A DNA stretch of 64,000 nt from a phage. Position numbers and translations under genes: made by a program. The DNA lies in sequence record PZ496581.1; one strand, given 5' to 3'. Positions within the stretch are counted from its first letter, which is position 1. Every line of letters starts with the position of its first letter. The notes under the pieces are model-generated. The model was not told the origin of the DNA and searched no databases. It saw only the letters and a list, made by a program, of their open reading frames with translations. This document shows, piece by piece, positions 10,684 through 54,882 of the stretch.

Positions 10684-11784
10684 TTACGCTGTGAAGATTT
10701 TATCCCACATCGCAACAACTGCATCTCGGTTATACTTCTTCCATACTGCTTCAGCACGTTTAACTCGAGCTTCGTATGTGTCAGTGAATTCTAATACAGC
10801 TTTTGTGTAAAGCGCAACTACTTCTTTCTTAGGAGTAGAGGAATCAATTTCTACACGCACAGTATCTGGGTCATATTCGAATGTCGCGTGCGGATAATCC
10901 TTAAAAACTAACTGGATTACAGGGACACCTTTAGAGATGGCTTCAATAGAACTATTCTCTACCGTACCTGTGTCAGGACATGTATTAATAAGTGCTTTAG
11001 CTGTTTTAAGACGTTCCATGATTTCACTGTGTGGAGCATCAATAATAACAGGATATTTAGCTGGTGGTGCCCATTTGCTTGGACAATAACCAATACCATT
11101 TTCGCCTAGTGCTTTAATTGCTTCAAGAGCAACATCAGTGCGACGCATTTTAGTGTCATAACGTTGAGCACTAATAATCAAATCAGTTGCTGGGAGAACT
11201 TCTGGCTTTTCAGTCAAACAAATAACCGGATAATCTTCGGCTTCAAACAACGGATTTGCTCGCCAATAATCATAATCAATTTTGTCAGTCAGACCTGAAG
11301 TCATATAACAATATTTGCGTTCAAATTCACGGAAGGCTTTAGTAGGAGCATAACTCTTACCACCATTCTTATGAATTTGAATAGTCTGGTCCCAAATTTG
11401 AACAATGCCACGAGATACCGGTTCAAATGGTGTTGCCATAAAATTCTTATGAACTTTAGAGAGACCTGCGTCTTTAATTGCCTGAACGGTTAGTTTAGTC
11501 GGTTCCATAGTAACAACAAAATCGTATTCATGGATGCCGGCTAGTTCAACAATCTTACGAGCCATAGTATAACTCATACCTAGACTGAATTTAGTCAGAT
11601 GACCAACAGGATGGTGTGTAACTTTCCAGTCACCAAACGTGTCATTATCAAAGCCGATATAATCAATATCAGCACCGATGGACACAAGATATTTCAACAC
11701 ATTTAAATGTACTGCTTCAAGACCACCTTGTACACGGTCAGGATTAAATGGGACTGCACGAGATGGGATAAACATAACTTTCAT
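10684..11784 (-). CDS. GT-B-type glycosyltransferase candidate
   Basis: 366 aa; N-terminus MKVMFIPSRAVPFNPDRVQGGLEAVHLNVLKYL and C-terminal TCPDTGTVENSSIEAISKGVPVI resemble GT-B (GT4-like) signatures. Confidence 0.5.
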   Translation of the reverse strand: MKVMFIPSRAVPFNPDRVQGGLEAVHLNVLKYLVSIGADIDYIGFDNDTFGDWKVTHHPVGHLTKFSLGMSYTMARKIVELAGIHEYDFVVTMEPTKLTVQAIKDAGLSKVHKNFMATPFEPVSRGIVQIWDQTIQIHKNGGKSYAPTKAFREFERKYCYMTSGLTDKIDYDYWRANPLFEAEDYPVICLTEKPEVLPATDLIISAQRYDTKMRRTDVALEAIKALGENGIGYCPSKWAPPAKYPVIIDAPHSEIMERLKTAKALINTCPDTGTVENSSIEAISKGVPVIQLVFKDYPHATFEYDPDTVRVEIDSSTPKKEVVALYTKAVLEFTDTYEARVKRAEAVWKKYNRDAVVAMWDKIFTA

Positions 11785-30440: not shown

Positions 30441-31584
30441 GGTCGTTTTCTATATCTGCTGCAGATGGAGCATCAGAAGTTTTAACCGGAACTTTAGTTG
30501 TTGCTTTGCAATTAATAAGGTCGTTAACAGCGTCATCAACTTCTTTAATAGAAGAGATAGCACCTAGTTTATATTTAGTTTCAATTGCATCTCGGAAAGG
30601 TTTGTGTTTAAACAAAGGTCCCCAGAATTCTACACAATCAGTAGCTTTAGCACGCCATGATTTTTCTTCACGAATCATTTCACCTGTTTCTTCGTCAAGG
30701 AATTCGCGAGCATACCAACCGGCTTTAGGCTTAACCACAAAACCGATTTCAGTTGCCATTTCTAACAAGCCACTGAATGGGTCAATACCGCCATCAAAAT
30801 TAACCGTGATCGGGAAAGTAGATTTCTCTTTAACTGTGCGAGATTTTTCTGCTTTCAACGTGAAGTCATAACCGGTCAATTCTGTACCTTCTTTAACCTG
30901 ACGTTTAGAGATAAAAAACACTGTGTTGGCAGAATAAAGAATACCTGTACCACCGCCCATAATCTCTTTAGGATACAATCCGCCAATTTCCATTGCGGTA
31001 TGGTTAATTGCAACACACGGAATATCTTTAATAGTCAGATACGGGGTCACAATACGGAAAAGAGATTTAAGTGCCTTAGCACGAGACATATCACCTACAA
31101 CTTTCTCGTTCAATGCATCTTCAGTTTCTTTCTTAGATGCAGTATTACCGATTGAATCGATAAAGATAATAACTTTATCACCCCGTTCAATCGCGTCAAG
31201 CTGATTAGTCATATCAACTTTAAGTTGTTCGACGGATTGAATCGGAGTATGAACTACACGGTCTAAATCAACACCCATTGAACGAAAATAAGATTCTGAA
31301 GCACCGAATTCTGAGTCATAAAACAAACAGATTGCATCTTTATATTTCTTCATATACGCTGCGACCATAGTTAGTCCAAACAATGTTTTAAAATGTTTAG
31401 AAGGTGCAGCAAAAATAGTCAAGCCTGATTGCAATCCTGCATTCAGAGCACCACCTAGTGCAATATTCAACATCGGAATACGAGTAGGGACTTCATCACG
31501 ATTATTAAACAGCTTAGACTTAGTCAAGTCTGCAGTCATTTTAGAAGTAGAAGCTTTAATCAGACGAGATTTTAAATCAGACAT
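30412..31584 (-). CDS. uvsX: UvsX recombinase (RecA-like)
   Basis: 390 aa; RecA fold motifs; T4 UvsX size and position. Confidence 0.9.
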   Translation of the reverse strand: MSDLKSRLIKASTSKMTADLTKSKLFNNRDEVPTRIPMLNIALGGALNAGLQSGLTIFAAPSKHFKTLFGLTMVAAYMKKYKDAICLFYDSEFGASESYFRSMGVDLDRVVHTPIQSVEQLKVDMTNQLDAIERGDKVIIFIDSIGNTASKKETEDALNEKVVGDMSRAKALKSLFRIVTPYLTIKDIPCVAINHTAMEIGGLYPKEIMGGGTGILYSANTVFFISKRQVKEGTELTGYDFTLKAEKSRTVKEKSTFPITVNFDGGIDPFSGLLEMATEIGFVVKPKAGWYAREFLDEETGEMIREEKSWRAKATDCVEFWGPLFKHKPFRDAIETKYKLGAISSIKEVDDAVNDLINCKATTKVPVKTSDAPSAADIENDLDEMEDFDE

Positions 31585-31637
31585 TGTATTTTTCCATAGG
31601 CATCATTATATTTTACTCATGTTTAAAAGATAAGATG

Positions 31638-31664
31638 ATTATATACTAAGGGTTATACAGCATT
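31638..31664 (-). promoter_or_regulatory. possible MotA-dependent middle promoter (uvsX)
   Basis: AATGCTGTA (MotA-box-like) - 12 nt - TATAAT. Confidence 0.3.
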
Positions 31665-31682
31665 TAAAACTTTAAATGGCTC

Positions 31683-32231
31683 TTAACGAGCCCATTTGAT
31701 GATTTCTGTAATCAAATCATTACGTTCGCTTGCATTAAATCCTATAACTTTGTTAGCACCATCATGATTAAGTAATTGATACGTTTGGATTTTGTTATGA
31801 ATTGCAAACTCTTCAAAATGTGAAATGACTGTATTAAAACCGAATGAAGACAAAGTAATAAGGTCGTCTTCAAAACTTTCAGTCATTTCGTTACGTGTTA
31901 AAATAATTGTGAACACATCATGGTTTTGGCAAAGACGAACATAATCCTGTTCATAAACGTCAAGAACCGAGTCCGCATCTTGTCGAATACGTCCATAAAC
32001 CCAGTTACTAATATATCCACGGTCTAATAGATAAATCTTAGTAGGGTCTAAATAATTCAACATCGTTTCGAAACAGCCAACTTCATTTCGAGACTTAACA
32101 TCGAAACGTCCATCAACTGTTCGTTTAGGGAAATCAATCTTTACATATCTTTCACTAATTTCCATTATGTCATTAATGAAAGTTGTTTTACCAGCATTAT
32201 CCGGGCCATCTACTAAAATAATTTTAGCCAT
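31683..32231 (-). CDS. P-loop kinase (thymidylate-kinase-like)
   Basis: 182 aa; Walker A GPDNAGKTT, LLDRGY resembling TMPK DRY motif; at T4 bgt position. Confidence 0.5.
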   Translation of the reverse strand: MAKIILVDGPDNAGKTTFINDIMEISERYVKIDFPKRTVDGRFDVKSRNEVGCFETMLNYLDPTKIYLLDRGYISNWVYGRIRQDADSVLDVYEQDYVRLCQNHDVFTIILTRNEMTESFEDDLITLSSFGFNTVISHFEEFAIHNKIQTYQLLNHDGANKVIGFNASERNDLITEIIKWAR

Positions 32232-32232
32232 T

Positions 32233-33132
32233 TTATTCCTCGATTACGACATCTTCGTATTTAGGTATATTATACGGTGAAGAAATTAAAGCATTAAAGT
32301 AGATGAACTCACCAAGACCTGGATGGAATACTTCTTCAGGATTTTCGAAATATTGAATCTTCGGACGTCCTTTAAGAATTTGATAGTACTCAGTTTTAGT
32401 TGGTTTAAAAATTCGAATCAACGCTTCTTCAGGATACTTATTTCTGTCGAAGCTATTATTTGGATCGGTTATATAAAGCGGTTGACCTAATTGAATTGCA
32501 CATTCAACCACTTGTTCAAAACGATAGCACGGGTCACTAATTCGAAATGGATGAAAAATACCATCTAGATGAATAGGAGCCAAATCACCTACAAGACGCT
32601 GCATGATGGAAGGACGTATAACTTTCTGGGTTATGATAATCTTATTACCATCGGCACCAGCGTTAACCAGCACTTCTTTTTGACGTTCATTCAACACAGT
32701 AGTTTGAAGTGAACGATTAACCGACAACATATCGGTTTTTAAGAATTCGTCAATATAAAAACGTGGTTTATTAGGGTCTGCAGTGATATTGAAATTGAAT
32801 TCCACATCAAAAGCGCCGTCATATCCGGTGATATCTGTGATTAGAAAATCACAATCATAATAAGCAATTAATGAATCAACCACAAATTCATTTTCAGACC
32901 AGAAATATTTACGAGTGTTATACGCGTTATCTTTATACCATAATGGAACAAACTTAAATTCTGGAAAAAGACGTTCGCATTCTTTAATATCAGATGCATT
33001 ACGTGGATATGTAATCACATCACCCGGATTAGCACGGTGCAAATGAAGTTGGAAGTTGCCATCCTTAAGGATAGCATACTGTCCAGTTTCATAAGACCGC
33101 ATACTCAAAATAGGTACGCGGAAAATAGCCAT
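32233..33132 (-). CDS. hypothetical protein
   Basis: 299 aa, no recognised motif; at T4 bgt position. Confidence 0.5.
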   Translation of the reverse strand: MAIFRVPILSMRSYETGQYAILKDGNFQLHLHRANPGDVITYPRNASDIKECERLFPEFKFVPLWYKDNAYNTRKYFWSENEFVVDSLIAYYDCDFLITDITGYDGAFDVEFNFNITADPNKPRFYIDEFLKTDMLSVNRSLQTTVLNERQKEVLVNAGADGNKIIITQKVIRPSIMQRLVGDLAPIHLDGIFHPFRISDPCYRFEQVVECAIQLGQPLYITDPNNSFDRNKYPEEALIRIFKPTKTEYYQILKGRPKIQYFENPEEVFHPGLGEFIYFNALISSPYNIPKYEDVVIEE

Positions 33133-33848
33133 TAGTCAAGGAATCCTTTAACATAATCAAAATCACGTTCAAACACATGGGCACTTACCATGGTATGAGT
33201 ATAATCACCAACTTCTACACCACATTCGTTAGCGATATAATGAAGTAATTTTCCTTGGAGATAAAAATCCAACTGCATAACAACAGCACAGTTCTGAGAA
33301 CGCATATGACAGTGGGTATAAAGCTTACCATCACGAATATAATAAGTCACTGAGTCAGTACATGGATATTCAAGCGTTTCGTCTGAATCAAGCAAAGCCT
33401 GATCAGAACTTTCTAGAATTTGGAACACAACTCTTCGAGAGTTAGGCTTCTCTTTAAGTTCTTTTAGAAGAGCTGGTAATTGGGCCGCAATGCGAGGACC
33501 ATAGAAAGTGTTGAAGTTCGCCGGCAAAACATCTGATTTTGGTTTAGAAATAAATTTAGCGACATTAGGATATGCCTTAAACGCTTCTTCTGCGTTGGTA
33601 CCACCAGAAATCATAAACTTCCAGAAGTCTTCGGCATATTCATAAGAGATGCGGTTAATACGTGGGTCGGTCATTTTGAATGATGATGGAGTGTCAACAA
33701 CTACTGTCATAGACCCAATTTCATTACAACGTCCAATACGAGAATCAGTTACGAATTCCGGGTTTTCTAAAATTTCACGATTGACTGCTTTAAATGCGGT
33801 TTGAAAATCTGCGGCTTTGATATATTTCATTGTGTTATGTTTTCCCAT
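33132..33848 (-). CDS. 42: dCMP hydroxymethylase-like (thymidylate synthase fold)
   Basis: 238 aa; PNSRR...YPCTDSVTYYIRDGKLYTHCHMRSQNCAVV parallels T4 gp42 PDSRRG...CTNTVQYLIRD...NMRSNDVV; divergent. Confidence 0.7.
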   Translation of the reverse strand: MGKHNTMKYIKAADFQTAFKAVNREILENPEFVTDSRIGRCNEIGSMTVVVDTPSSFKMTDPRINRISYEYAEDFWKFMISGGTNAEEAFKAYPNVAKFISKPKSDVLPANFNTFYGPRIAAQLPALLKELKEKPNSRRVVFQILESSDQALLDSDETLEYPCTDSVTYYIRDGKLYTHCHMRSQNCAVVMQLDFYLQGKLLHYIANECGVEVGDYTHTMVSAHVFERDFDYVKGFLD

Positions 33849-33890
33849 GTTTACCTCAATACAATTTATTATATACTCAATTCGTAAAGC

Positions 33891-34130
33891 TTATTTGAAT
33901 TTCTTGACAATGTTGATATAACGTAAAGCTTCAGCATCGATACTTCCAAGAACACTATGAAGAAATGCATCAGCGTAGTATTCCAATTGAACAGGTTCTT
34001 TAATCACTTTAGCCGCTTTAGTTTCAAACAGGCCCATCAGGGCCTGTTTAAGAATTTGTTCATTAGTGTTCAGTTTCATAGTCAAAATCTCTTCATTAAG
34101 TTGGTGGTTAAAAGTTTTTCTAGAAATCAT
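33891..34130 (-). CDS. hypothetical protein
   Basis: 79 aa ORF. Confidence 0.4.
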   Translation of the reverse strand: MISRKTFNHQLNEEILTMKLNTNEQILKQALMGLFETKAAKVIKEPVQLEYYADAFLHSVLGSIDAEALRYINIVKKFK

Positions 34131-35287
34131 TCCGGGTACCTCAAAGCGTCATCAGAGTTAGTTATATCAATAATAGATATAGAGTTTTCTGCTAACCCGT
34201 TTTTAGATAATTGACGTTTATAATATCTTTCACAATATGTACACGTCGTCCCGCAGATTTCATTAGCACAATCGAAATCTGGATGTCTGAACCACCTTTT
34301 TTCTAAAAAGCCATCTAACAAAGAGGTTTCAATATTTACTGTATGTGAAAACTCAGTTTCGTTTTCAAGAGTGAAAATAGTCTCTAAAGGCTTCCACAGT
34401 TCTAACAAATTACCTTCAAACTTTTCAGAAGCGTATGCTTCAAGAACTTTCAAAATGTAGTCTGTGCTACCTGTACGTCCTGAAACTTTGAATTGAGTGA
34501 TACCAATATCATTATAAAGTTTCAAATCTTGAGGACGAACAAAACGAGTTCTCAACCAGTTAAATGGGTCTGTATCACGAGCTTTAATACAGTGCTGCAT
34601 AGGATATCCGTTTAAGGATTTAGCATCATCAGCTGTAACATCAGTACTATGGAAAATATAGCAAGAGTCACGATAGCTACAATGTGTTGTATACCCTTTA
34701 CCAGCATTAGAACAGAACTCATTTACAAGAACTTCAAATATTATATTGTTCTTATTGCAAAACTCTGCTGCACGCTTCAGGAAAGAAACTGAACGGTTCT
34801 TATGAATTCCACAGCAGACCTTTTTGATATTATATTGGTCATGCAAGTATTTGATTTGAGTTACAGCATCGACATGTAGAATTGTTGAAACTTCAATCTC
34901 AATGTCTTTATTGACTTCACGAACAATTTCCATAACAACAGGGTTAGCGATAGTAATACGCCATACGCCTATTGACCAAAGATACTGAACATAATCCTGA
35001 ATAGCTTTCTTCTTCCACTCAACTAGTTCTCTTTTTGAACCAGGATTTATCGTGTTGAGTGTATAGTTAAAGCAAATACCTAATTCGTTACAACGTTTAA
35101 CGTAATCTTCTAACATCTTTTTGTCAACGTCAGGAAGCCTAAAATCAGGTCTGGCTGCTACAAAAGCCATTTCTCTTGTAGAGCCGTATACTTCATTTAT
35201 CAAGCTATTAGGATAAGTTTTATTGAGCTCTACGATTTTATCAAGAAGAGCTAAATCAAAATTCGTTCCGATTTTAAAAGTATTCAT
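34127..35287 (-). CDS. hypothetical enzyme, weakly peptidase-U32-like
   Basis: 386 aa; EVLVNEFCSNAGKGYTTHCSY loosely resembles U32 signature; Cys cluster CGTTCTYC at C-terminus. Confidence 0.45.
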   Translation of the reverse strand: MNTFKIGTNFDLALLDKIVELNKTYPNSLINEVYGSTREMAFVAARPDFRLPDVDKKMLEDYVKRCNELGICFNYTLNTINPGSKRELVEWKKKAIQDYVQYLWSIGVWRITIANPVVMEIVREVNKDIEIEVSTILHVDAVTQIKYLHDQYNIKKVCCGIHKNRSVSFLKRAAEFCNKNNIIFEVLVNEFCSNAGKGYTTHCSYRDSCYIFHSTDVTADDAKSLNGYPMQHCIKARDTDPFNWLRTRFVRPQDLKLYNDIGITQFKVSGRTGSTDYILKVLEAYASEKFEGNLLELWKPLETIFTLENETEFSHTVNIETSLLDGFLEKRWFRHPDFDCANEICGTTCTYCERYYKRQLSKNGLAENSISIIDITNSDDALRYPE

Positions 35288-35347
35288 TTTTTTTGCATCT
35301 CGCGTTAATTGATGTGATGGTTTTTTTTGCAGGTCTTACTTAAATTA

Positions 35348-35749
35348 TTATAGATTCGGTTTATATGATTTAAATGTTTCGAATTCGCCTTTATTCATAA
35401 GAGCTTTGAATTCGTCAGGACGCATAGCTTTGTCGTCGATAATCCAATCATATACTGGTTTATGTGTTAGCAAATTATGGTACTTCAAACCAATGTTTTC
35501 CAAGTTCTGAATCAGACTTGGGAGAATGTCAATTGCTATACGACCAGGACCTACTGACTTCATACCACGAGCAGTGTAAAGCGTTATGGTATGCCCTGCA
35601 TCATACAGGGCATTAATGGCAGACACCATTTCGACGTCTGGTTTGAAGTTCACGTAATCACGATTGTTATTCCATTCCGTGATGCAATCATCGACATCAA
35701 AACAAAGATTAAGCATGTTTTCTACACGGTGCATTAGATTCGTTCCCAT
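35348..35749 (-). CDS. HAD-superfamily phosphatase
   Basis: 133 aa; motif I FDVDDCIT, motif IV WIIDD. Confidence 0.55.
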   Translation of the reverse strand: MGTNLMHRVENMLNLCFDVDDCITEWNNNRDYVNFKPDVEMVSAINALYDAGHTITLYTARGMKSVGPGRIAIDILPSLIQNLENIGLKYHNLLTHKPVYDWIIDDKAMRPDEFKALMNKGEFETFKSYKPNL

Positions 35750-37419
35750 TGATGAGTGATATCGCCACCGATTGGACGATAGGAAACACCAGTTTCTTTA
35801 TCAGTTAGTACCCATTTACCAGGATTTTTTGTAATCAGAGTAGCCGTTACAGGTTCTGCTACGTCATAACTAATAGAGCCGTCCTGAAGTACACGGCCCA
35901 TGTTACGTAATTGCTTAGTCAGAAGTTCCATACCTTTATAATATGCGGCTACCGCTTTAAGTGGATTATTCTTGAAATAACCACCTAATGCAATCCAGAT
36001 AATTGCCACTGCCAAATGATGATACTCGTTAAACGAACTCATCTTTCCATATTTGTAAACTAATGGATTGATGTTAATAGTCACATTACAAGTTGTTTCA
36101 TCAATAGTAAACTGTCCCCAGGTCGGATTAGCATTGAATTCATCATAACCTGAAACAGCATAAAGCACTTTAGCTTCATCATACAATTTTGGCCCGTAAA
36201 TCTTGGTTTCGCCAAAATATCCACGAGGGTCGATAAACTTGACTTCGCCGTTATCAGTAATCATAGTATTACTGAAGTTCGGGTCACCATGAATAACAGA
36301 GTACTGTCCCTGAGAACGGTTATGATAACGAATAAGATGTTCTAAAGCTTGTTTCAACATTGGCTTCAGACGTCCAATCTTAGTGTAGTTCACATGTGTG
36401 ATTTTACCAAATGAATCAATCAATGGTTGAATGCTTTCACAACGATCAATAACTTTCGTATAGAATTCTTTAGTGAAATCACGACGAACAGTTTCAGGAC
36501 TTACAAAATAAGTGTCTGTGCTGAATTTCAGTGCATCTAAAATTGCATCAACAATTTGTGGACGAGCAAGACTTGATTTGGATTTAATATATTCAAATGC
36601 TGGCTTACCTTTAATGCGTTCCATTTCAAAGTTATTTTCATTAACAGAAACTAACTGAGGAACTGAATCTGATTTCACTTTAAGATACCACGAAATCTCA
36701 TCTTTCTGAAGAGCTCGTCCCTGTTCGGTTAATGCGAATTTAGTTACAGTTTCTTCACCAATTTCAACTGCATTAAAACTACGATTAAGTTCACGAACTT
36801 CATGAGCTTTTTCAAGTTTAGGCATATCACCTAAATCAATTAGATTCATAAGCTCTGATTTATTGAATGCGCTGGCGTAAAGGAATTCTACGAAATCACG
36901 TCCTTTGCAGTATTCATGAATTTCTTCATCAGTAGAACCCATATAGAATTCCCAGTCTTTGAACTGATAAATTCCTACAACATTACCACCTGTTGAACCT
37001 ACGTTAGTGATATTTTCACCGTCGAAATTATATCGACATTCGTCACCCTTAACATAGATTGCGTTAACATTCCAAGACCATGAACCAAAATCAGGAATAA
37101 TATCACACCAGTTAACAATTACATTATGGCCGTCTAAATCTTTGTGTAATTTAGCAAGAGCATAAGCAGAACCATACGCTTCATCAACTGTACGAATAGT
37201 CACATTGAACCCTTCTTGCTCACAATAAGCTCGAACAGTTTCAGCAAATTTTGAATGAACTACTACAATAATTTCATCTGCGCCAAGGTCAGAATAAATT
37301 GTATACAAATTGCTCAGAATAGTGTCTTGTTTATAATTCACAAGAACTTTTGGAATATGATGCGTTATTGGATACAAACGAGTTGCCAGTCCAGCACCAA
37401 GAATAACAGCTTTTTTCAT
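35734..37419 (-). CDS. bifunctional sugar-phosphate nucleotidyltransferase / APH-like kinase
   Basis: 561 aa; N-terminal AVILGAGLATRL...PKVLV; C-terminal HGDPNFSN...IDPRG. Confidence 0.65.
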   Translation of the reverse strand: MKKAVILGAGLATRLYPITHHIPKVLVNYKQDTILSNLYTIYSDLGADEIIVVVHSKFAETVRAYCEQEGFNVTIRTVDEAYGSAYALAKLHKDLDGHNVIVNWCDIIPDFGSWSWNVNAIYVKGDECRYNFDGENITNVGSTGGNVVGIYQFKDWEFYMGSTDEEIHEYCKGRDFVEFLYASAFNKSELMNLIDLGDMPKLEKAHEVRELNRSFNAVEIGEETVTKFALTEQGRALQKDEISWYLKVKSDSVPQLVSVNENNFEMERIKGKPAFEYIKSKSSLARPQIVDAILDALKFSTDTYFVSPETVRRDFTKEFYTKVIDRCESIQPLIDSFGKITHVNYTKIGRLKPMLKQALEHLIRYHNRSQGQYSVIHGDPNFSNTMITDNGEVKFIDPRGYFGETKIYGPKLYDEAKVLYAVSGYDEFNANPTWGQFTIDETTCNVTININPLVYKYGKMSSFNEYHHLAVAIIWIALGGYFKNNPLKAVAAYYKGMELLTKQLRNMGRVLQDGSISYDVAEPVTATLITKNPGKWVLTDKETGVSYRPIGGDITHQWERI

Positions 37420-37600
37420 GTTGAAGTCCTCATTGGTAAGTAGGAGTATTGTACACTATTCTAGTTAAAGCATTCATACTTTGCTTGTAGTCCAATCATA
37501 ATCCATCCAATTACAAGTGTTGGAATCATTACCGGAGCCGTTAAGCTCCAGTAGATAGTCATGACAAGCATCAATAGTAAAAGTCCTATTGTTATTGCTT

Positions 37601-38236
37601 TCATTGTTCGCCTCGTAACATGGCACCTAGTGCACCGCCTGGATGGAACTTAAGGAAATCATTAGAGGTAAATCCACGTTCAGACGAAAGGTTGATAGCA
37701 AACGTATCGATAAGTGCTAACAACAATGTAGTGGACATCGTCGGAGCTAAAGAGTTCTCGTCAACTTCTACCGCGATACCGGTGCAGAACGTATAATCAA
37801 AAAGAGCTTCGTATTCTTGTGGAATGTCAGGGTTACAATGTAACAGAATCTGTTTAACCTGAGGACGAATCATACGAAGATGTTTAGCAACACCTATCAT
37901 TTCTTCAGTCTTACCAGAACGACTGATGTGAACTAATACATCATTAGGTGCAATAAATCCTGCGTCACCATGAGAATAATGCCCGGTGTTCAAATACATG
38001 CTAGGAATACCTAGTGAAGCAAAAGTCTCGGAAGCTTTAGTTGCGATATTAGCATTCTTACCAACACCTGTAATAATTACCCGGCTTTCATAATTACTAA
38101 GTCCAGGGCGTCGAAGAGTTTCTAGAATAGCATTATAACGAGCAGGGTTTTGACTAATTACTTTAGCCATAGTGGCAAGAGATGAAGCTTGTTTTACGAT
38201 TGCGTCAATAGCGATAGTAATAGGAGTAGTTTTCAT
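37601..38236 (-). CDS. SIS-domain sugar-phosphate isomerase (arabinose-5-phosphate isomerase-like)
   Basis: 211 aa; VIITGVGKN, HISRSGKTEE, APTMSTT, FHPGGALG align with KdsD/GutQ SIS domain as recalled; no CBS domains. Confidence 0.75.
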   Translation of the reverse strand: MKTTPITIAIDAIVKQASSLATMAKVISQNPARYNAILETLRRPGLSNYESRVIITGVGKNANIATKASETFASLGIPSMYLNTGHYSHGDAGFIAPNDVLVHISRSGKTEEMIGVAKHLRMIRPQVKQILLHCNPDIPQEYEALFDYTFCTGIAVEVDENSLAPTMSTTLLLALIDTFAINLSSERGFTSNDFLKFHPGGALGAMLRGEQ

Positions 38237-38276
38237 ATTTCTCTCATTTAATTAGTTGGCCGTCCTTGGCATTATA

Positions 38277-40988
38277 TCAAAAATCAAACATATCGAACAG
38301 AGATGCTTTCTTCTCGTAATCGAGTTTAGCTGCTGATGTGAATCCTTCAAGTGGTTTAATAAATGTCTTCTCAAGGAGAACAGTGTAGTCCATCCAATGA
38401 AGTACATCGTCTTTAATTAAATCTGTGATTTCAGTACCAGAAGGCCATGCGATACATTTATCACCGAATGGGTTTCCTTCACGTAAAGGCAGAACATATA
38501 CTTTTTCACCTTCTACAACTTGCGGTGCATCGATATTACCTTTGATAGCCCGGTTATACGTCAGAATTCCACGAATATGGAACGGGCATTTGGGACCAGG
38601 GAATCCACCGACGTCATATTTAGCAATGTTATTCGCAGAAGATACCGACGCGATGCTAATATAATTCAACTGACGGAATTCTTTTTCAAACTCTTTAAAA
38701 TATTCTTGTAATGATTCTTCACCTTCCTGAAGCATACGACGAATACATTCCTTAAGAGCTTTCTGTACTGCTTTAGGAGTCGAAGATTTCTGTGTTTCGA
38801 GACCCATGATTTTAAGCTTAGGTTCAGCGTATCTGGTTCCTTCCATATCCCATACATTCAAGGCATAACGTTTCTTACCTGTCCAAAATCCGCCAATACC
38901 TTTAGAACCAAGCGGAGGCCCAGCGATAGCTTCTCGGTCCATGAACATTAAGTGTTGTTTATTGTTCATGTATTCACACATTTCACGGAAACCTCTATCA
39001 ATAGCTGGTTCCATACGTTCACGTGCAAACTTATCTAAGAAGTCTACCCAATGGTTGGTATCACGGAATTTAGATTCACCAACCTTATCGATAATTTTAT
39101 CGGCAGATACGTAAATAGAGTCTGTATCACCATAAAGAACGAAAGCTTCACCTTCTGTACCACAAACTTCATTCAGATATTCATTAACTTTACGTTCAAT
39201 CCACTGTAAAGCCATTTGTCCGAATGTTGTGATTGCAGTAGCATTACGCAAATCATAATAACGGAACCAAACGTTTCCAAGTGCACCATAAAGTGAGTTG
39301 ATGAGCAATTTACGGTTAATTTGTGCAGTCATACCTGCAACTTCAGTACGTTGAGCTCTAAACAACATTTCATTAAGAGATTTAGCAGACAACTTTTTAA
39401 TCTTTTCTTTAATCTCATCGCTGAAGTCGAAACGATAATCAACATCTAATGGTTCGTCAACAGAAAGATTAGGATTATGCAATGCCTCTTTAATTATTTC
39501 ACCATTACGTTGAGCTGCAAGCATGTAACCTTTATGTTCTTTACGTTGATTAAAGACCTTAGTGATTTCAGTTGGAACTACACCATCACGGTCTTTATAA
39601 TACATCATGCCGTTAGGAGAACAACTGTACACATCTGAAGGACGTTCAGCGATTGCGTTAATATAATCATGCAATGGAGCTACTTTAAACGTTCCTGCTA
39701 TTGTTTCCGGGCTAATATTCACTTGGCGAATAATACTTGGATACAGAGATGTAAGGTCGAAACTCATTACATATTTGTATCGATTTGGAATAGGTTCCTT
39801 AACAAAAGCGCCAGGATAAGGTTGAACCGGGTGAGAACGACCTTGTGGAATCACCTTGTTCTGTTCTTTAAGGCTATTAAAAATAATAGCATCCCATGTT
39901 TTAATTGGGCCAAACACAGATTGAATCTGTATCTTAGCATAATAACCCATGTCCAAACTCAAGTTGATGAACTGACGCTTAGCATCAATTTGCAATACAC
40001 GATACACATCGATAATGTTATAAGAAATATATCGTTGGTGATTGCTTTCACGAAGTTTAGAAATAGGGCCGTCATATTTCAGTTTACCAACGTTCAATTC
40101 AAATTCTGAAATGTAATCCAGAGAATACGATGGTTGATTGGTAAAAGAGAATTTTTTGTAAAGGTCAATGTAATCAAGAACAGAGATACCGAACAATGTA
40201 ATGATTTCACGAGAACCATACATGTTTTCGATAACTTTAACACGAGTTTTACGATGTGGTGATAAACGTTTCGCAGTAGATTCGCCAAAAATATTCTTGA
40301 TTCGGTTATACACATATGGAATATCGAATGACTCAACGTTCCATCCAGTCAAAATGACAGGAGTTTTCTGTTGCCAGAAGTTGAGATATTCCATCAACAA
40401 TTCTTTTTCGTTATCGAACGGTATATAAATGATTTTATCGATAATTTCGGATGGAACTTCATCACCACCTTGTTCTTGAAGCTTAGCCGCAATTTCGATA
40501 GACCATTCTTCTACATTACCATACGGAGAATTCAATAGATCAAATACGTAGAACCTGTCGTCAATTGAGTCATAATGGGTGATAGCATCAATCGGATGTT
40601 TTGCTTGTGATGGCTCAGGGAACCCATCCGGAGATGTTACTTCGATGTCGAAGTTAGCCACACGAATTTTTGTATGGTCGTATTTGATTTCATAGTTATA
40701 AGTGTCAGACAAATACGCCAATTTGAAATCGTCCATACCAAGTGCTTCAAGTCCGATATCTTCCATGCGTTTAATCCATTGGGAGGCATCACGCATATTA
40801 GCGAACAACTTACGAGTACACGGCTTACCGTAGATATCGAAATATTTCGTAGCCTGACTTTCTGGACAATGAGCAAACAGTGATGGTTTATATTCTACTT
40901 CACGAGTACGTTCACGGCCATTAGAATCGATGTAACGTTCAAAAATTGAATCACCAATCTGTTCAACCGTTAAGTAAAATTCTTTCAT
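38277..40988 (-). CDS. 43: DNA polymerase (family B)
   Basis: 903 aa; exo FDIE, polymerase YGDTDS; MKEFYLTVEQ start. Confidence 0.95.
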   Translation of the reverse strand: MKEFYLTVEQIGDSIFERYIDSNGRERTREVEYKPSLFAHCPESQATKYFDIYGKPCTRKLFANMRDASQWIKRMEDIGLEALGMDDFKLAYLSDTYNYEIKYDHTKIRVANFDIEVTSPDGFPEPSQAKHPIDAITHYDSIDDRFYVFDLLNSPYGNVEEWSIEIAAKLQEQGGDEVPSEIIDKIIYIPFDNEKELLMEYLNFWQQKTPVILTGWNVESFDIPYVYNRIKNIFGESTAKRLSPHRKTRVKVIENMYGSREIITLFGISVLDYIDLYKKFSFTNQPSYSLDYISEFELNVGKLKYDGPISKLRESNHQRYISYNIIDVYRVLQIDAKRQFINLSLDMGYYAKIQIQSVFGPIKTWDAIIFNSLKEQNKVIPQGRSHPVQPYPGAFVKEPIPNRYKYVMSFDLTSLYPSIIRQVNISPETIAGTFKVAPLHDYINAIAERPSDVYSCSPNGMMYYKDRDGVVPTEITKVFNQRKEHKGYMLAAQRNGEIIKEALHNPNLSVDEPLDVDYRFDFSDEIKEKIKKLSAKSLNEMLFRAQRTEVAGMTAQINRKLLINSLYGALGNVWFRYYDLRNATAITTFGQMALQWIERKVNEYLNEVCGTEGEAFVLYGDTDSIYVSADKIIDKVGESKFRDTNHWVDFLDKFARERMEPAIDRGFREMCEYMNNKQHLMFMDREAIAGPPLGSKGIGGFWTGKKRYALNVWDMEGTRYAEPKLKIMGLETQKSSTPKAVQKALKECIRRMLQEGEESLQEYFKEFEKEFRQLNYISIASVSSANNIAKYDVGGFPGPKCPFHIRGILTYNRAIKGNIDAPQVVEGEKVYVLPLREGNPFGDKCIAWPSGTEITDLIKDDVLHWMDYTVLLEKTFIKPLEGFTSAAKLDYEKKASLFDMFDF

Positions 40989-52127: not shown

Positions 52128-52598
52128 TTAATCATGTTTCCACACCCCATCGGTATTTGTCCAAAGTCGCTGATTATCTGATCCTCGCCACAGCTTTTTA
52201 GTCGGAAGATTTTTCTCATACTTCCCATCAATAATAACATCAACATATTTAAGCATTTCTAGCTGTTTAATATCTTCAAACTTATATCCTGTCCACAACC
52301 AAATGCTTTTATTTGGATAAAGATTTTTTACTGTTTGAGCAATGCAATGAATAACATCTCGATTATCAGGATAGAGAGGGTCACCTCCGGTTATAGTCAA
52401 TCCTTCTATATAATCATTATTCAAACATTCAATTAATTGTTCTAGTGTCTCTCCGGTGAATGGAATACCATTTCTAGCATTCCATGTTGATTTATTATAA
52501 CACCCTTCGCATTTATGCAAACAACCTGTAACGAAAAGAACGACCCTGCAACCAGGGCCATTCACAAAATCGCAAGGATAAAATCTATCATAATTCAT
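52128..52598 (-). CDS. nrdG: anaerobic ribonucleotide reductase activating protein (radical SAM)
   Basis: 156 aa; CLHKCEGC cluster. Confidence 0.85.
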   Translation of the reverse strand: MNYDRFYPCDFVNGPGCRVVLFVTGCLHKCEGCYNKSTWNARNGIPFTGETLEQLIECLNNDYIEGLTITGGDPLYPDNRDVIHCIAQTVKNLYPNKSIWLWTGYKFEDIKQLEMLKYVDVIIDGKYEKNLPTKKLWRGSDNQRLWTNTDGVWKHD

Positions 52599-54412
52599 TG
52601 GTGTTTAACCCTATGCATGATTTCTTTATTTTTACCGAGATTAAATCCGCGTTCGTTAGGATTTCCCAAATAACCGCATGTTCTTCTTATGGTGTTCATC
52701 TTTTTAGGATCAGTTTCTCCACAAACTGAACAAACAAATCCGTTTTCAGTAGGAGTCATTTCATGGGTACTTCCGCATGTAAAACATTTATCTACTGGCA
52801 TATTAACACCAAAATAATCTAAATGTTGTGCAGCATAATCCCATACGGCCTCAAGACCTTTTAAGTTATTTTTCATATCAGGAAGTTCAACATAAGAAAT
52901 GTGACCACCTGTCGCAATGAAATGATATGGCGCTTCATGAGAAATCTTTTCAAACGGAGTAATATTTTCTTCTACTGAAACATGGAAACTATTAGTGTAC
53001 CAGCCTTTATCAGTGACATCCTTTACACTTCCATATTTTTCTGTATCAAGTTTACAGAAGCGATAACAAAGGTTTTCAGCAGGAGTAGAATACAAACTAA
53101 AAGCAAACCCAGTTCTTTCAGTCCACTGTTTAAGATGAGCATTCATTTTAGTTAAAATTTCTTGCCCAATATCACGACCGACAAGAATATTCAATTCGTG
53201 AATACCAATGTATCCTAGGGACACTGAACTTCTACCGTTTTTAAATAACTCAATTATATCGTCATCAGGTTTAAGACGAACCCCGAATGCACCTTCTTGG
53301 TAAAGAATAGGAGCAACAGTCGCTTTAACTCCTTTTAAGGAACTAATTCTACACATCAAAGCTTCAAAACATAAATCCATTCGTTCATTGAATAATTCAA
53401 CAAATTTCTGTTCGTTAAATTGCGTTCCAATATAAGAATCTAACGCGATGCGAGGAAGATTCAATGTTACAACACCAAGATTATTGCGACCATCAAGAAT
53501 TTCATTACCGGTTGAATCTTTCCATACACTCAAGAAACTACGGCAACCCATTGGAGAAACAGGAACTGAAGAACCGGTAATAGCTTTATTATTCTTAACC
53601 GAAATAATGTCAGGATACATTCTTTTGCTTGCACATTCTAACGCAAGTTGTTTAATATCATAGTTTGGATCATCTTTATAAAGATTAACACCTTCTTCAA
53701 CAAACATAACAAGCTTAGGGAAAATAGGAGTTATCCCATCACGACCAAGACCTTTAATACGATTTTTCAGAATTGCTTTCTGAATCATTCGTTCAGTCCA
53801 GTCAGTTCCCGTACCAAATGTAATTGTTACAAAAGGAGTTTGTCCGTTTGAACTAAAGAGAGTATTTACTTCATACTCATAAGCTTGAAATGCGTCATAG
53901 ACATCTTTTTCTGTTTTGGATTGAGCATAATTCAACGCATCAGCGATTTGCCATTTTTCTGCATCCTCAATATGTTTTGCATAGGTGCGTTTAACATAAG
54001 GAGAAAGTACTTTATCTACATTCGCAAATGTAGTTCCGCCATACTGGTGTGAAGCAACCTGTGCGGTAATTTGTGCCATAATTGCAGTAGCAACGCCAAT
54101 TGATTTAGGAGTTTCAATCTGTGCATTACCTAGCTTAAATCCATTCTCAAGCATCCCCTTTAAATCGACTAAACAGCAATTGGTAAACGGAAGAGCAGGA
54201 GAATAATCAATATCATGCATGTGAATGATTCCGCTTTCATGCGCATTCATAATAAAAGACGGGACCATATTTTTGGCAATGTGCTTAGACACAATACCAG
54301 CCATAAGGTCCCGTTGAGTTGGAAAAACACGAGAATCTTTATTAGCATTCTCGTTCAAAAGATCTTTATTAGTTTTATAAATTAATCCTTCAATTTCTTT
54401 TTCAATTTTCAT
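52595..54412 (-). CDS. nrdD: anaerobic ribonucleoside-triphosphate reductase
   Basis: 605 aa continuous ORF; C-terminal glycyl-radical RTCGY and Zn-ribbon CxxC pairs; no intron. Confidence 0.9.
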   Translation of the reverse strand: MKIEKEIEGLIYKTNKDLLNENANKDSRVFPTQRDLMAGIVSKHIAKNMVPSFIMNAHESGIIHMHDIDYSPALPFTNCCLVDLKGMLENGFKLGNAQIETPKSIGVATAIMAQITAQVASHQYGGTTFANVDKVLSPYVKRTYAKHIEDAEKWQIADALNYAQSKTEKDVYDAFQAYEYEVNTLFSSNGQTPFVTITFGTGTDWTERMIQKAILKNRIKGLGRDGITPIFPKLVMFVEEGVNLYKDDPNYDIKQLALECASKRMYPDIISVKNNKAITGSSVPVSPMGCRSFLSVWKDSTGNEILDGRNNLGVVTLNLPRIALDSYIGTQFNEQKFVELFNERMDLCFEALMCRISSLKGVKATVAPILYQEGAFGVRLKPDDDIIELFKNGRSSVSLGYIGIHELNILVGRDIGQEILTKMNAHLKQWTERTGFAFSLYSTPAENLCYRFCKLDTEKYGSVKDVTDKGWYTNSFHVSVEENITPFEKISHEAPYHFIATGGHISYVELPDMKNNLKGLEAVWDYAAQHLDYFGVNMPVDKCFTCGSTHEMTPTENGFVCSVCGETDPKKMNTIRRTCGYLGNPNERGFNLGKNKEIMHRVKHQ

Positions 54413-54882
54413 TTTAAACTCTTTCTAAGTTGCTTCTTAAATGAAGCTATTAACTGTGTTTTGGTGTCAGATTCATTATATTCAAATCCTCTTTGAAGCA
54501 TCTCAGCCATCATTTCCTCTTTACCTAGTCTTGAGAACTCTTTAGTTTTGTCTGGAACAAAATTAGGATGGATATTATTATCAGAATAATCTTGTTTCAA
54601 ATAAGCAAGAAGAGCTTCAAGCCATTCGAGGTAGTCGACATCACGTCCTTTAAGACCGGAACGGTTGAACTTATGCTTCATTTGACCTTCTGCTGCGTTG
54701 CACAGATTACAGAGTAATCCACGAACTCTACCGGCTTTTGGCCCGTTTAATTCGTGGTCGTGGTCAAGATGGTTACCTTGAACATCAGGGTCTAATTCAC
54801 GGTGGCAAATAGGACACTTACCGTTCTGTGCATCATAAAATTTTTGTTTTTCTTCTTTATATTTTGCGCCTGATAATAACAT
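54409..54882 (-). CDS. 49: endonuclease VII (Holliday junction resolvase)
   Basis: 157 aa; near-identical to T4 endo VII as recalled. Confidence 0.9.
   Translation of the reverse strand: MLLSGAKYKEEKQKFYDAQNGKCPICHRELDPDVQGNHLDHDHELNGPKAGRVRGLLCNLCNAAEGQMKHKFNRSGLKGRDVDYLEWLEALLAYLKQDYSDNNIHPNFVPDKTKEFSRLGKEEMMAEMLQRGFEYNESDTKTQLIASFKKQLRKSLK

Follow-up and report, generated by a model that had tools for sequence, protein, structure and literature searches.

In phage T4, glucosylated 5-hydroxymethylcytosine (hmC) is produced in two stages: prior to replication, a homologue of thymidylate synthase (ThyA) modifies deoxycytidine monophosphate (dCMP), and glycosyltransferases then act on the replicated DNA. 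The same logic applies to the stretch of phage DNA considered here, a window of 64,000 nucleotides (the whole stretch analysed, from sequence record PZ496581.1), for which the closest described systems are those of RB69 and its relatives. Arabinose was reported in RB69 DNA by Thomas et al. 2018, who gave ORF055c and ORF53_52c as the likely source of uridine diphosphate (UDP)-arabinose and ORF003c as the transferase (PMC6024577), and a route from ribulose-5-phosphate through arabinose-5-phosphate (A5P) to nucleoside diphosphate (NDP)- or UDP-arabinose has been assigned to the gene cassette (PMC6024577; Lee et al., NAR 2026, PMC13326640). The modified base of RB69 is mono- or di-arabinosyl-5-hydroxycytosine, with an ether link at C5, and not hmC (PMC13326640); likewise, an independent 2026 paper gives 5-hydroxycytosine as the acceptor base in the Mosigvirus NP (PMC13390438). 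According to these two reports, arabinosyl-5-hydroxydeoxycytidine has been shown in the virion DNA of RB69, NP and HY126. In RB69 the responsible protein is gp48, which binds flavin and hydroxylates dCMP at position 5 with oxygen drawn from O2, the substitution D169N being diagnostic of such enzymes (PMC13326640). Here, we assess the corresponding cluster in the window, with particular attention to a protein of 386 amino acids (aa) belonging to the peptidase U32 family, and propose, with a probability of roughly 55–60 %, that this protein is a prephenate-dependent, O2-independent pyrimidine C5 hydroxylase of the base branch.

Judged from its proteins, the window comes from RB69 itself or from a near-identical Mosigvirus. 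The DNA polymerase matches that of RB69 at 100 % identity, the cassette proteins share 94–100 % identity with RB69 ORF049c–055c, and the 4.5-kb region is matched at 95–99 % DNA identity by 153 phage genomes, including mar005P1, JK45, APCEc01 and Bas46. The gene order from the thymidylate kinase (TMPK)-like gene to gp43 is identical in the window and in the arabinosyl-5-hydroxycytosine clusters of RB69, HY126 (Afh), Bas46/47 and NP, and all tested members of the RB69/HY126-type Afh cluster are present, namely the isomerase, AfhE, AfhF, the D169N ThyA homologue and both transferases. Essentially the only difference lies in the 561-aa and 299-aa open reading frames (ORFs), which are intact in the window and split in the RB69 reference record (052/053 and 046/047), the splits being documented sequencing errors (PMC6024577, PMC13326640). 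As far as its known parts go, the region can with high confidence be called an RB69-type Mosigvirus hypermodification cluster, in which cytosine is replaced by (poly)arabinofuranosyl-5-hydroxycytosine. The four-gene sugar-nucleotide cassette described in an earlier note on this DNA is, as posed there, an already published system (Thomas 2018; Lee 2026, with citations of He 2026 and Mahler 2025), and the note's tentative link to the arabinosylation cassette assigned in RB69-type phages is upheld by the protein identities given above. The cassette occupies the same genomic slot as the hmC genes of T4, between gene 43 and uvsX, whereas the handle differs, being a hydroxymethyl group (folate) in T4 and a hydroxyl group (flavin/O2) in the window, where the donor pathway is phage-encoded. 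While the known cluster adds no novelty, there is residual value in the U32 gene, for which comparison suggests a specific mechanism. These phages infect gut bacteria, have an anaerobic ribonucleotide reductase and replace all of their cytosines, whereas the dCMP 5-hydroxylase of the published pathway depends on O2. Anoxic DNA modification is not addressed in PMC6024577, PMC13326640 or PMC13390438, and a prephenate-fed U32 protein would, if the proposal is true, provide the answer.

Cellular members of the U32 family supply the precedent. The 5-hydroxycytidine found at position 2501 of 23S rRNA depends on RlhA and the 5-hydroxyuridine of tRNA on TrhP (PMC5727448, PMC10990095), and UbiU/UbiV are required for three anaerobic ring hydroxylations of ubiquinone (PMC10990095). 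The characterised functions found in the literature are O2-independent hydroxylations that need cysteine-bound iron-sulfur (Fe-S) clusters as well as prephenate (PMC5727448, PMC10990095), which, based on 18O tracing, is the oxygen donor for UbiU/V (PMC10990095). The base of the RlhA product, 5-hydroxycytosine, is the base that an RB69-type phage needs.

Although the 386-aa ORF had been correctly recognized in the earlier note, its product was held there to be of unclear fold. The protein matches Pfam Peptidase_U32 (PF01136) at 7e-11 (42.2 bits against a cut-off of 22.4), its AlphaFold2 model has a predicted local distance difference test score of 93, and its best Foldseek match is the U32 protein 5D88 (E 1e-7; template modelling score of 0.69 on the target), identifying it as a U32 TIM barrel. 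The PF01136 domain, the TIM-barrel fold and invariant cysteines are common to the phage protein and RlhA, TrhP, UbiU and UbiV. Nine cysteines (C158, C192, C203, C209, C233, C340, C345, C349 and C352) are retained without exception in 121 homologues, the most distant of which are 48 % identical. Four of these, C192/C203/C209/C233, fall in the Fe-S region of U32 proteins, where they align ambiguously to the canonical positions, and the C-terminal set has the spacing C340-x4-C-x3-C-x2-C. The Fe-S sites of the protein are probable. Also conserved is K267-x-x-G-R-T, the equivalent of the U32 'KIEGR' motif. In contrast to the four Escherichia coli paralogues, the phage protein has the extra invariant C-terminal CX4CX3CX2C set, no DUF3656 and a substrate presumed to be a deoxynucleotide; beyond the barrel and the Cys-rich tail there is no domain, whether DUF3656 or another RNA-binding extension. 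Membership in the RlhA, TrhP or UbiU/V subfamily was considered and rejected on hidden Markov model (HMM) scores that are too weak, the NCBIfam UbiU model, for example, giving 18.5 bits against a cut-off of 440. The phage proteins instead form a subfamily of their own, of which the four E. coli paralogues are only distant relatives. Searches of PDB sequences, whether with the U32 protein alone or as a family profile, returned a spurious match to BIM1 only.

Among 50,697 records of cultured phages searched by tblastn, 222 carry U32, with every match at least 80 % identical. The organisms of these records are Escherichia, Klebsiella, Shigella, Serratia, Proteus, Yersinia, Enterobacter, Providencia, Edwardsiella, Pectobacterium and Shewanella; the hosts named are facultative anaerobes, and Acinetobacter is not among the ten commonest organism names of the 222 records. 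By the same method, the fusion enzyme of the sugar branch is found in 377 phage records, 57 of which are Acinetobacter phages. Acinetobacter, the host of phage DLP3, is strictly aerobic. Within the DLP3 locus, the gene for the HAD phosphatase is followed directly by that for the ThyA homologue, U32 and the small ORF being missing, and this phage makes tri-arabinosyl-5-hydroxycytosine (PMC13326640). The Dhakavirus Bp7, a phage of E. coli, is also without U32 and keeps the fusion, HAD, kinase, ThyA-like and transferase genes; a SIS gene was not detected in Bp7 by tblastn. The U32 protein had been counted among the sugar-route enzymes; given its absence from DLP3 and Bp7 and its occurrence in viral loci without arabinose genes, we conclude from gene content that it is not an enzyme of the sugar branch. 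Between genera, U32 is 83–87 % identical, on par with UvsX, as compared to 69–79 % for the polymerase and 66–71 % for the fusion enzyme, a level of conservation that indicates strong purifying selection rather than a weakly constrained accessory gene. The distribution of NrdD, used as a proxy for phages of aerobic hosts, was weakly informative, with Acinetobacter not in the top ten genera. Relatives of U32 that are 40–58 % identical were seen in metagenomic contigs only, with none among the cultured-phage records, a pattern that would fit rarely cultured hosts such as strict anaerobes.

Whereas the tie to prephenate was made through mutants for the E. coli U32 proteins, it is made through gene neighbours for the phage protein. 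The U32 gene of Enterobacter phage Entb_45 is followed by one for a chorismate mutase (Pfam CM_2, 2.4e-10), and a gene of this type is present, by tblastn, in 56 phage records that include Klebsiella, Serratia, Yersinia, Enterobacter, Edwardsiella, Erwinia, Proteus, Pectobacterium, Shewanella, Providencia and Morganella phages. Where the neighbours are annotated, the phage chorismate mutase sits between U32 and the ThyA homologue; R11, R28, K39, E52 and S84 are invariant in it, and Q88 is mostly retained. A metagenomic U32 family was additionally retrieved by database search at 48–58 % identity, and a diverse set of 36 non-T4-like loci, from IMG/VR and other assemblies, was inspected over ±10 kb per contig. 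In seven of the 36, 3-deoxy-D-arabinoheptulosonate 7-phosphate (DAHP) synthase adjoins U32 or is one gene removed from it; in the single locus scanned for the distinction (L013), the NCBIfam match is 2.6e-70 as DAHP synthase versus 3e-17 as 3-deoxy-D-manno-octulosonate-8-phosphate synthase. Five of the seven DAHP synthases are fused to a chorismate mutase domain, which was found with Pfam CM_2 in L041, L044, L045 and L055 (2e-24 to 1e-9) and with the chorismate mutase family HMM in the truncated gene of L042 (1.6e-15). Enzymes of the prephenate pathway are placed beside phage U32 in three different gene arrangements.

The remaining partners of U32 in the diverse loci are a glycosyltransferase of the gp46:47 family (25/36), the TMPK-like kinase (24/36), the nucleotidyltransferase-kinase fusion (17/36) and the SIS protein (10/36). 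The kinase accompanies U32 in all 15 T4-like loci and in 39 of the 51 loci overall. A further protein that accompanies U32 in metagenomic loci ('unk334') was considered as a new family and rejected, as hhalign places it in the gp46:47 glycosyltransferase family (E 1e-49). A ThyA homologue lies within 10 kb in one of the 36 loci, and it is a canonical thymidylate synthase retaining D169 and N177. In L041 and L045, the gene order is glycosyltransferase, SIS, nucleotidyltransferase-kinase, TMPK-like, DAHP synthase-chorismate mutase, one ORF and U32, and within ±10 kb there is no hydroxylase candidate besides U32 in loci of this type. In L014 (4777-13179) and L038, U32 is found together with a gp46:47-family transferase, a TMPK-like kinase, two TAGT-type glycosyltransferases, dUTPase/DCD and UDP-galactopyranose mutase, a gene content that suggests a lineage with galactofuranosylated 5-hydroxypyrimidine DNA and no ThyA homologue nearby. 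Arabinose genes were not seen within ±10 kb in L014, L038, L009 and L012. In L009, L012 and L057, a dCMP deaminase gene adjoins U32.

Based on family membership, conserved residues and gene neighbourhoods, the U32 protein would use prephenate, and not O2, to give a 5-hydroxypyrimidine nucleotide, most likely 5-hydroxy-dCMP; the constant kinase partner argues for action on a mononucleotide. Each modified cytosine would cost one prephenate, and a genome of 168 kb at 37 % GC has approximately 62,000 cytosines. Such a cost would explain the chorismate mutase or DAHP synthase-chorismate mutase genes of other phages, which would supply the prephenate there, whereas in the window phage, without a chorismate mutase of its own, prephenate would come from host PheA/TyrA. 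This phage, like other T4-like phages of facultative anaerobes, would then be able to modify its DNA with oxygen or without it, holding an aerobic/anaerobic pair of hydroxylases for one step that is comparable to UbiI/H/F with UbiU/V in E. coli and to NrdAB with NrdDG in T4-like phages, the phage hydroxylase pairing being inferred from gene content and distribution. With the NrdD and NrdG genes encoded in the window, the phage can make deoxynucleoside triphosphates anaerobically. The broader idea, that U32 founds a phage-borne subfamily of hydroxylases for DNA precursors, is the sole handle-maker in many uncultivated phages and is attended by auxiliary metabolic genes that supply prephenate, may be taken as an even bet.

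Several points weigh against the proposal for U32. The spacing of its cysteines, C-x10-C-x5-C-x23-C, differs from the canonical CX6CX15CX3-4C, and the HMM scores of the phage family are those of a distant relative (15.0 bits for TrhP, 9.2 for RlhA, 6.0 for UbiU and -1.4 for UbiV). Direct hydroxylase activity has been reconstituted for no U32 protein (PMC10990095). Dhakaviruses infect E. coli without U32, so an anaerobic-capable host does not oblige the gene, and no chorismate mutase was found in a six-frame search of the whole window. In the metagenomic contigs, ThyA homologues could lie beyond the inspected ±10 kb, and co-location would fit dCMP, another nucleotide or DNA as the substrate. 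Lee et al. list gp50 once, in their Table 1, as 'sugar or heterocycle reductase' (PMC13326640), and a full-text search, with He 2026 and Mahler 2025 outside it, returned no paper that connects U32 with the modification of phage DNA. Prephenate, chorismate and peptidase are not mentioned in the text of Lee et al.; it notes that the known pathways of RNA pyrimidine hydroxylation use no ThyA-type synthase homologues, with no remark on a homologue of such a pathway inside the cluster (PMC13326640). Neither U32 nor chorismate mutase is mentioned in the Thanatos paper, and a phage Tn-seq preprint (Bas46, LC53) is silent on the cassette genes.

Other explanations must be weighed alongside the hydroxylase proposal. 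The view of the earlier note, that all four proteins make up one sugar-nucleotide route that passes through free arabinose, has the phosphatase before the kinase and provides the donor for hmC DNA, is highly improbable. While its domain calls are correct, its phosphatase-first order agrees with the wording of Table 1 in PMC13326640 and the annotation of the BASEL phage Bas46 labels the fusion and U32 alike as 'putative enzyme involved in UDP-arabinose biosynthesis', the DNA carries arabinosyl-5-hydroxycytosine, D169N is present in the window, the order relayed for HY126 is kinase then phosphatase via arabinose-1,5-bisphosphate (PMC13326640 citing He 2026), and U32 is missing in DLP3 and Bp7 and present elsewhere without arabinose genes. 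An accessory function for U32, either as a sugar/heterocycle reductase or epimerase or in tailoring either the sugar or the flavin that serves the ThyA-like hydroxylase as cofactor, is improbable as well. RB69 and NP DNA show no chemistry beyond arabinosyl- and arabinosyl-arabinosyl-5-hydroxycytosine (PMC13326640, PMC13390438), and DLP3 builds the same sugar chain without U32; moreover, a ThyA-like partner is lacking in 35 of the 36 diverse loci, arabinose genes are lacking in four, and the recurrent chorismate mutase/DAHP synthase neighbours would be left unexplained. In favour of such a function are the reductase entry of Lee et al., the label 'epimerase' in the Mosigvirus cluster (PMC13390438), generic matches of the TIM barrel to aldolases and sugar isomerases, and the location of U32 beside SIS and nucleotidyltransferase-kinase genes in many loci.

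Two further alternatives concern the substrate. RlhA and TrhP act on polynucleotides, and U32 abuts TAGT and gp46:47-family glycosyltransferases in several loci, as might be expected of a hydroxylase that works post-replicatively on the cytosines of DNA, or else on dCTP/dCDP and not on dCMP. However, this is unlikely, as the frequency of the TMPK-like kinase and the dCMP deaminase, dUTPase, NT5C and deoxynucleoside kinase neighbours point to the mononucleotide pool, the protein is no more than a barrel with a Cys-rich tail, and complete replacement of cytosine is easier via the precursor pool. It is very unlikely that U32 is unrelated to phage DNA, whether as a protease ('collagenase-like peptidase') or as an RNA hydroxylase by which the rRNA or tRNA of the host is retuned. 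Although the database names 'peptidase' and 'collagenase-like protease' and the RNA hydroxylations by RlhA and TrhP would suit such a role, U32 is embedded and translationally coupled in a modification cluster in every genus examined, it is without the DUF3656 and C-terminal region of RlhA, the host already has RlhA and TrhP, and the mechanism of U32 protease activity is not established (PMC5727448).

If U32 is indeed a prephenate-dependent hydroxylase, there would be a reason for the chorismate mutase and DAHP synthase genes in phages, and a small soluble substrate such as dCMP could make U32 chemistry testable in vitro. Depending on oxygen, Mosigvirus, which has U32, would also be predicted to differ in host range and defence evasion from the Dhakavirus and Acinetobacter phages, which lack it, and such differences would be relevant to phage therapy in anoxic sites.

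Turning to the cluster as a whole, all genes across 28.6–43 kb are on the minus strand, and the four ORFs named in the earlier note were each found there with exactly the boundaries it had given. Reading from gp43, the genes follow the order of the table below as far as the TMPK-like gene, after which comes UvsX; the HY126 locus has the same gene order as the window. The GC content of the cassette (0.33–0.42) resembles that of its flanks, and base composition does not indicate a recent foreign origin. A promoter/terminator scan of 31500-38400 found sites no more numerous than in shuffled sequence. Elsewhere in the window (52128-54882), nrdG and nrdD form one uninterrupted run with the endonuclease VII gene (54409-54882), their stop and start codons overlapping as they do in T4-like genomes.

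Features of the cluster and of related genes elsewhere in the window, with predicted products
Predicted product	Length	Counterpart	Coordinates	Strand	Remark
gp43 polymerase			38277-40988	-	
SIS arabinose-5-phosphate isomerase	211 aa	RB69 gp55	37601..38236	-	
Hydrophobic small ORF	47 aa	RB69 ORF054c	37461..37604	-	
Nucleotidyltransferase-kinase fusion	561 aa	RB69 ORF53_52c, HY126 AfhE	35734..37419	-	
HAD phosphatase	133 aa	RB69 gp51, HY126 AfhF	35348..35749	-	
U32-family TIM-barrel protein	386 aa	RB69 gp50	34127..35287	-	
Helical ORF	79 aa	RB69 ORF049c	33891..34130	-	
ThyA-homologue 5-hydroxy-dCMP synthase	238 aa	RB69 gp48	33132..33848	-	
DNA arabinosyltransferase 1	299 aa	RB69 gp46:47	32233..33132	-	
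Thymidylate-kinase-like nucleotide kinase	182 aa	RB69 gp45	31683..32231	-	
Second DNA arabinosyltransferase		RB69 ORF003c	10684..11784	-	between rIIA and gp39 topoisomerase gene
NrdG			52128-52598	-	Fer4_12 6.8e-48, Radical_SAM
NrdD			52595-54412	-	Pfam NRDD 8.6e-172, Gly_radical

Within the base branch, the ThyA homologue keeps C146 of E. coli ThyA and differs from it by L143E, D169N ('RSQN' at 166–169) and N177D; it is near-identical to PDB entries 9IQC/9IR2/9IQU (8e-161). On the basis of these residues, it is a flavin/O2-dependent 5-hydroxy-dCMP synthase and not a hydroxymethylase. The cassette had been placed between hydroxymethylase 42 and polymerase 43, which is right as to position and wrong as to the first label, since the ThyA homologue is of the 5-hydroxylase type. 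The accompanying claim of hmC as the acceptor likewise falls, given the 5-hydroxycytosine reported in PMC13326640 and PMC13390438 and the D169N of the window protein. In the predicted sequence of events, the ThyA homologue would hydroxylate dCMP with flavin and O2, kinases would raise the hydroxylated nucleotide to the triphosphate, the polymerase would incorporate the product, and the two glycosyltransferases would arabinosylate the DNA after incorporation. The TMPK-like protein matches PHROG 761, thymidylate kinase, at 2e-45. The 299-aa transferase is 98 % identical to RB69 gp46:47, which is listed as a DNA arabinosyltransferase in Table 1 of PMC13326640, and the second transferase shares 99 % identity with RB69 ORF003c (NP_861693.1), which has been assigned as an arabinosyltransferase (PMC6024577, PMC13326640).

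In the sugar branch, the SIS protein is matched by Pfam SIS (8e-10) and by the NCBIfam models KpsF/GutQ (9e-32) and KdsD (4e-30), the SIS domain alone being matched in each case. It covers positions 2–153 of 268 in the KpsF/GutQ model (110.7 bits against a cut-off of 203.7) and positions 47–202 of 328 in the KdsD model (105 bits against 505), and so it fails as a full-length KdsD member; at 211 aa, it is, by comparison with these models, without the tandem CBS pair. Its PDB matches are 3ETN (1e-24), 2XHZ, the SIS domain of E. coli KdsD (2e-18), and 5UQI. The protein also belongs to PHROG 5670, 'arabinose 5-phosphate isomerase' (2e-116), is 97 % identical to RB69 gp55 and contains the motifs GVGK and SRSGKT. 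The SIS domain is common to the window protein, KdsD/GutQ and the single-domain isomerase of Bacteroides fragilis (3ETN), whereas KdsD/GutQ carries the CBS pair and the window protein, which has none, scores under the full-length cut-offs. By homology, it is an arabinose-5-phosphate isomerase, converting ribulose-5-phosphate to A5P, of the single-domain type represented by 3ETN.

The fusion protein, which is 100 % identical to the RB69 ORF052/053 fragments, has an NTP_transferase match at residues 3–99 (8e-10) and weak kinase matches at residues 308–409 (Pfam), along with the motifs G8-AGLATRL, H377-GDPNFSN (Brenner motif) and D397-PRG; the best PDB sequence match of its N-domain is LicC, 1JYK (2e-5). 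These features identify it as a predicted N-terminal sugar-1-phosphate nucleotidyltransferase joined to a C-terminal APH/choline-kinase-like sugar kinase, corresponding to AfhE. The logic of phosphorylating and then nucleotidylating is common to LicA/LicC (choline), AmgK/MurU (MurNAc) and the window fusion. However, the window protein has both activities in one chain, its substrate is a pentose phosphate, and its bisphosphate intermediate calls for a separate HAD phosphatase. The HAD protein matches the capsule phosphatase model TIGR01689 (NCBIfam, 2e-13), bears the motif D18-V-D-D-C, differs from PDB 9IQW by one substitution in 129 aligned residues (4e-87), and is related to 1XPJ as well. It corresponds to the HAD phosphatase AfhF. 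The SIS-domain, fusion and HAD calls of the earlier note are all supported by these matches and motifs.

The host lacks the UDP-arabinofuranose donor (PMC13326640), hence the need for the phage to carry its own three-protein pathway. As relayed in PMC13326640 from He et al. 2026, AfhE of HY126 converts A5P to arabinose-1,5-bisphosphate and later makes UDP-arabinofuranose; between these two steps, AfhF strips the 5-phosphate to leave arabinose-1-phosphate. In that relayed order, kinase then phosphatase, free arabinose is no intermediate, although Table 1 of PMC13326640 keeps the phosphatase-first wording. By analogy, the SIS protein would convert ribulose-5-phosphate to A5P, the C-terminal kinase domain of the fusion would phosphorylate C1 to give arabinose-1,5-bisphosphate, the HAD phosphatase would take off the 5-phosphate to give arabinose-1-phosphate, and the N-terminal domain of the fusion would combine arabinose-1-phosphate with UTP to yield UDP-arabinofuranose. 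The route from ribulose-5-phosphate to NDP-arabinose sketched in the earlier note is right in outline (PMC6024577, PMC13326640), whereas its free-arabinose intermediate and its placing of the phosphatase before the kinase do not agree with the order relayed in PMC13326640.

Both small ORFs of the interval are translationally coupled through ATGA overlaps, the 47-aa ORF to the SIS stop codon and the 79-aa ORF to U32. The 47-aa ORF is strongly hydrophobic, with PHROG 3610 (function unknown) as its sole family match; it is kept at 57–64 % identity in TG1, Entb_45 and Bp7, and the LC53 copy is annotated with transmembrane segments. The Bp7 homologue adjoins imm, outside any sugar cluster. The 47-aa ORF is probably outside the pathway and may be left over from the imm region of T4. 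The 79-aa ORF was considered as a chorismate mutase and rejected: it is not matched by CM_2 even at E 10, it does not resemble the Entb_45 chorismate mutase in sequence, and Yersinia phage TG1 carries this ORF and a chorismate mutase as separate genes. Within Mosigvirus it is 88–98 % identical, versus 99–100 % for U32, and it is split, frameshifted or truncated in HY126 (L064:7001-7123), JS09, AV112, TU01, HX01, PHB12 and DCP548. In laboratory phages at least, this ORF seems to be dispensable or in decay.

A few other features were seen around U32 in the diverse loci. L009 (7447-9939) and L012 (6504-8826) are large viral contigs that encode PolIII-alpha, one of them 466 kb in length. In both, the dCMP deaminase gene is upstream of U32, and downstream there is a conserved protein of ~250 aa with a faint SDR/epimerase signal, followed by an Hc1-like protein and SSB. 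L010 (7185-15428; an ENA contig of 86 kb, with genes also in L011) has two U32 paralogues together with NT5C, a PnuC-like transporter, a deoxynucleoside kinase, a radical-SAM/SPASM protein and a nucleoside 2-deoxyribosyltransferase, plus a dockerin/GH43 neighbour; this locus looks like a nucleoside-modification or salvage island and is possibly cellular or prophage. A radical-SAM/SPASM gene is close to U32 in L009 too. In L033, L037, L046 and L059, the gene directly downstream of U32 encodes a protein of ~900 aa (897–906 aa).

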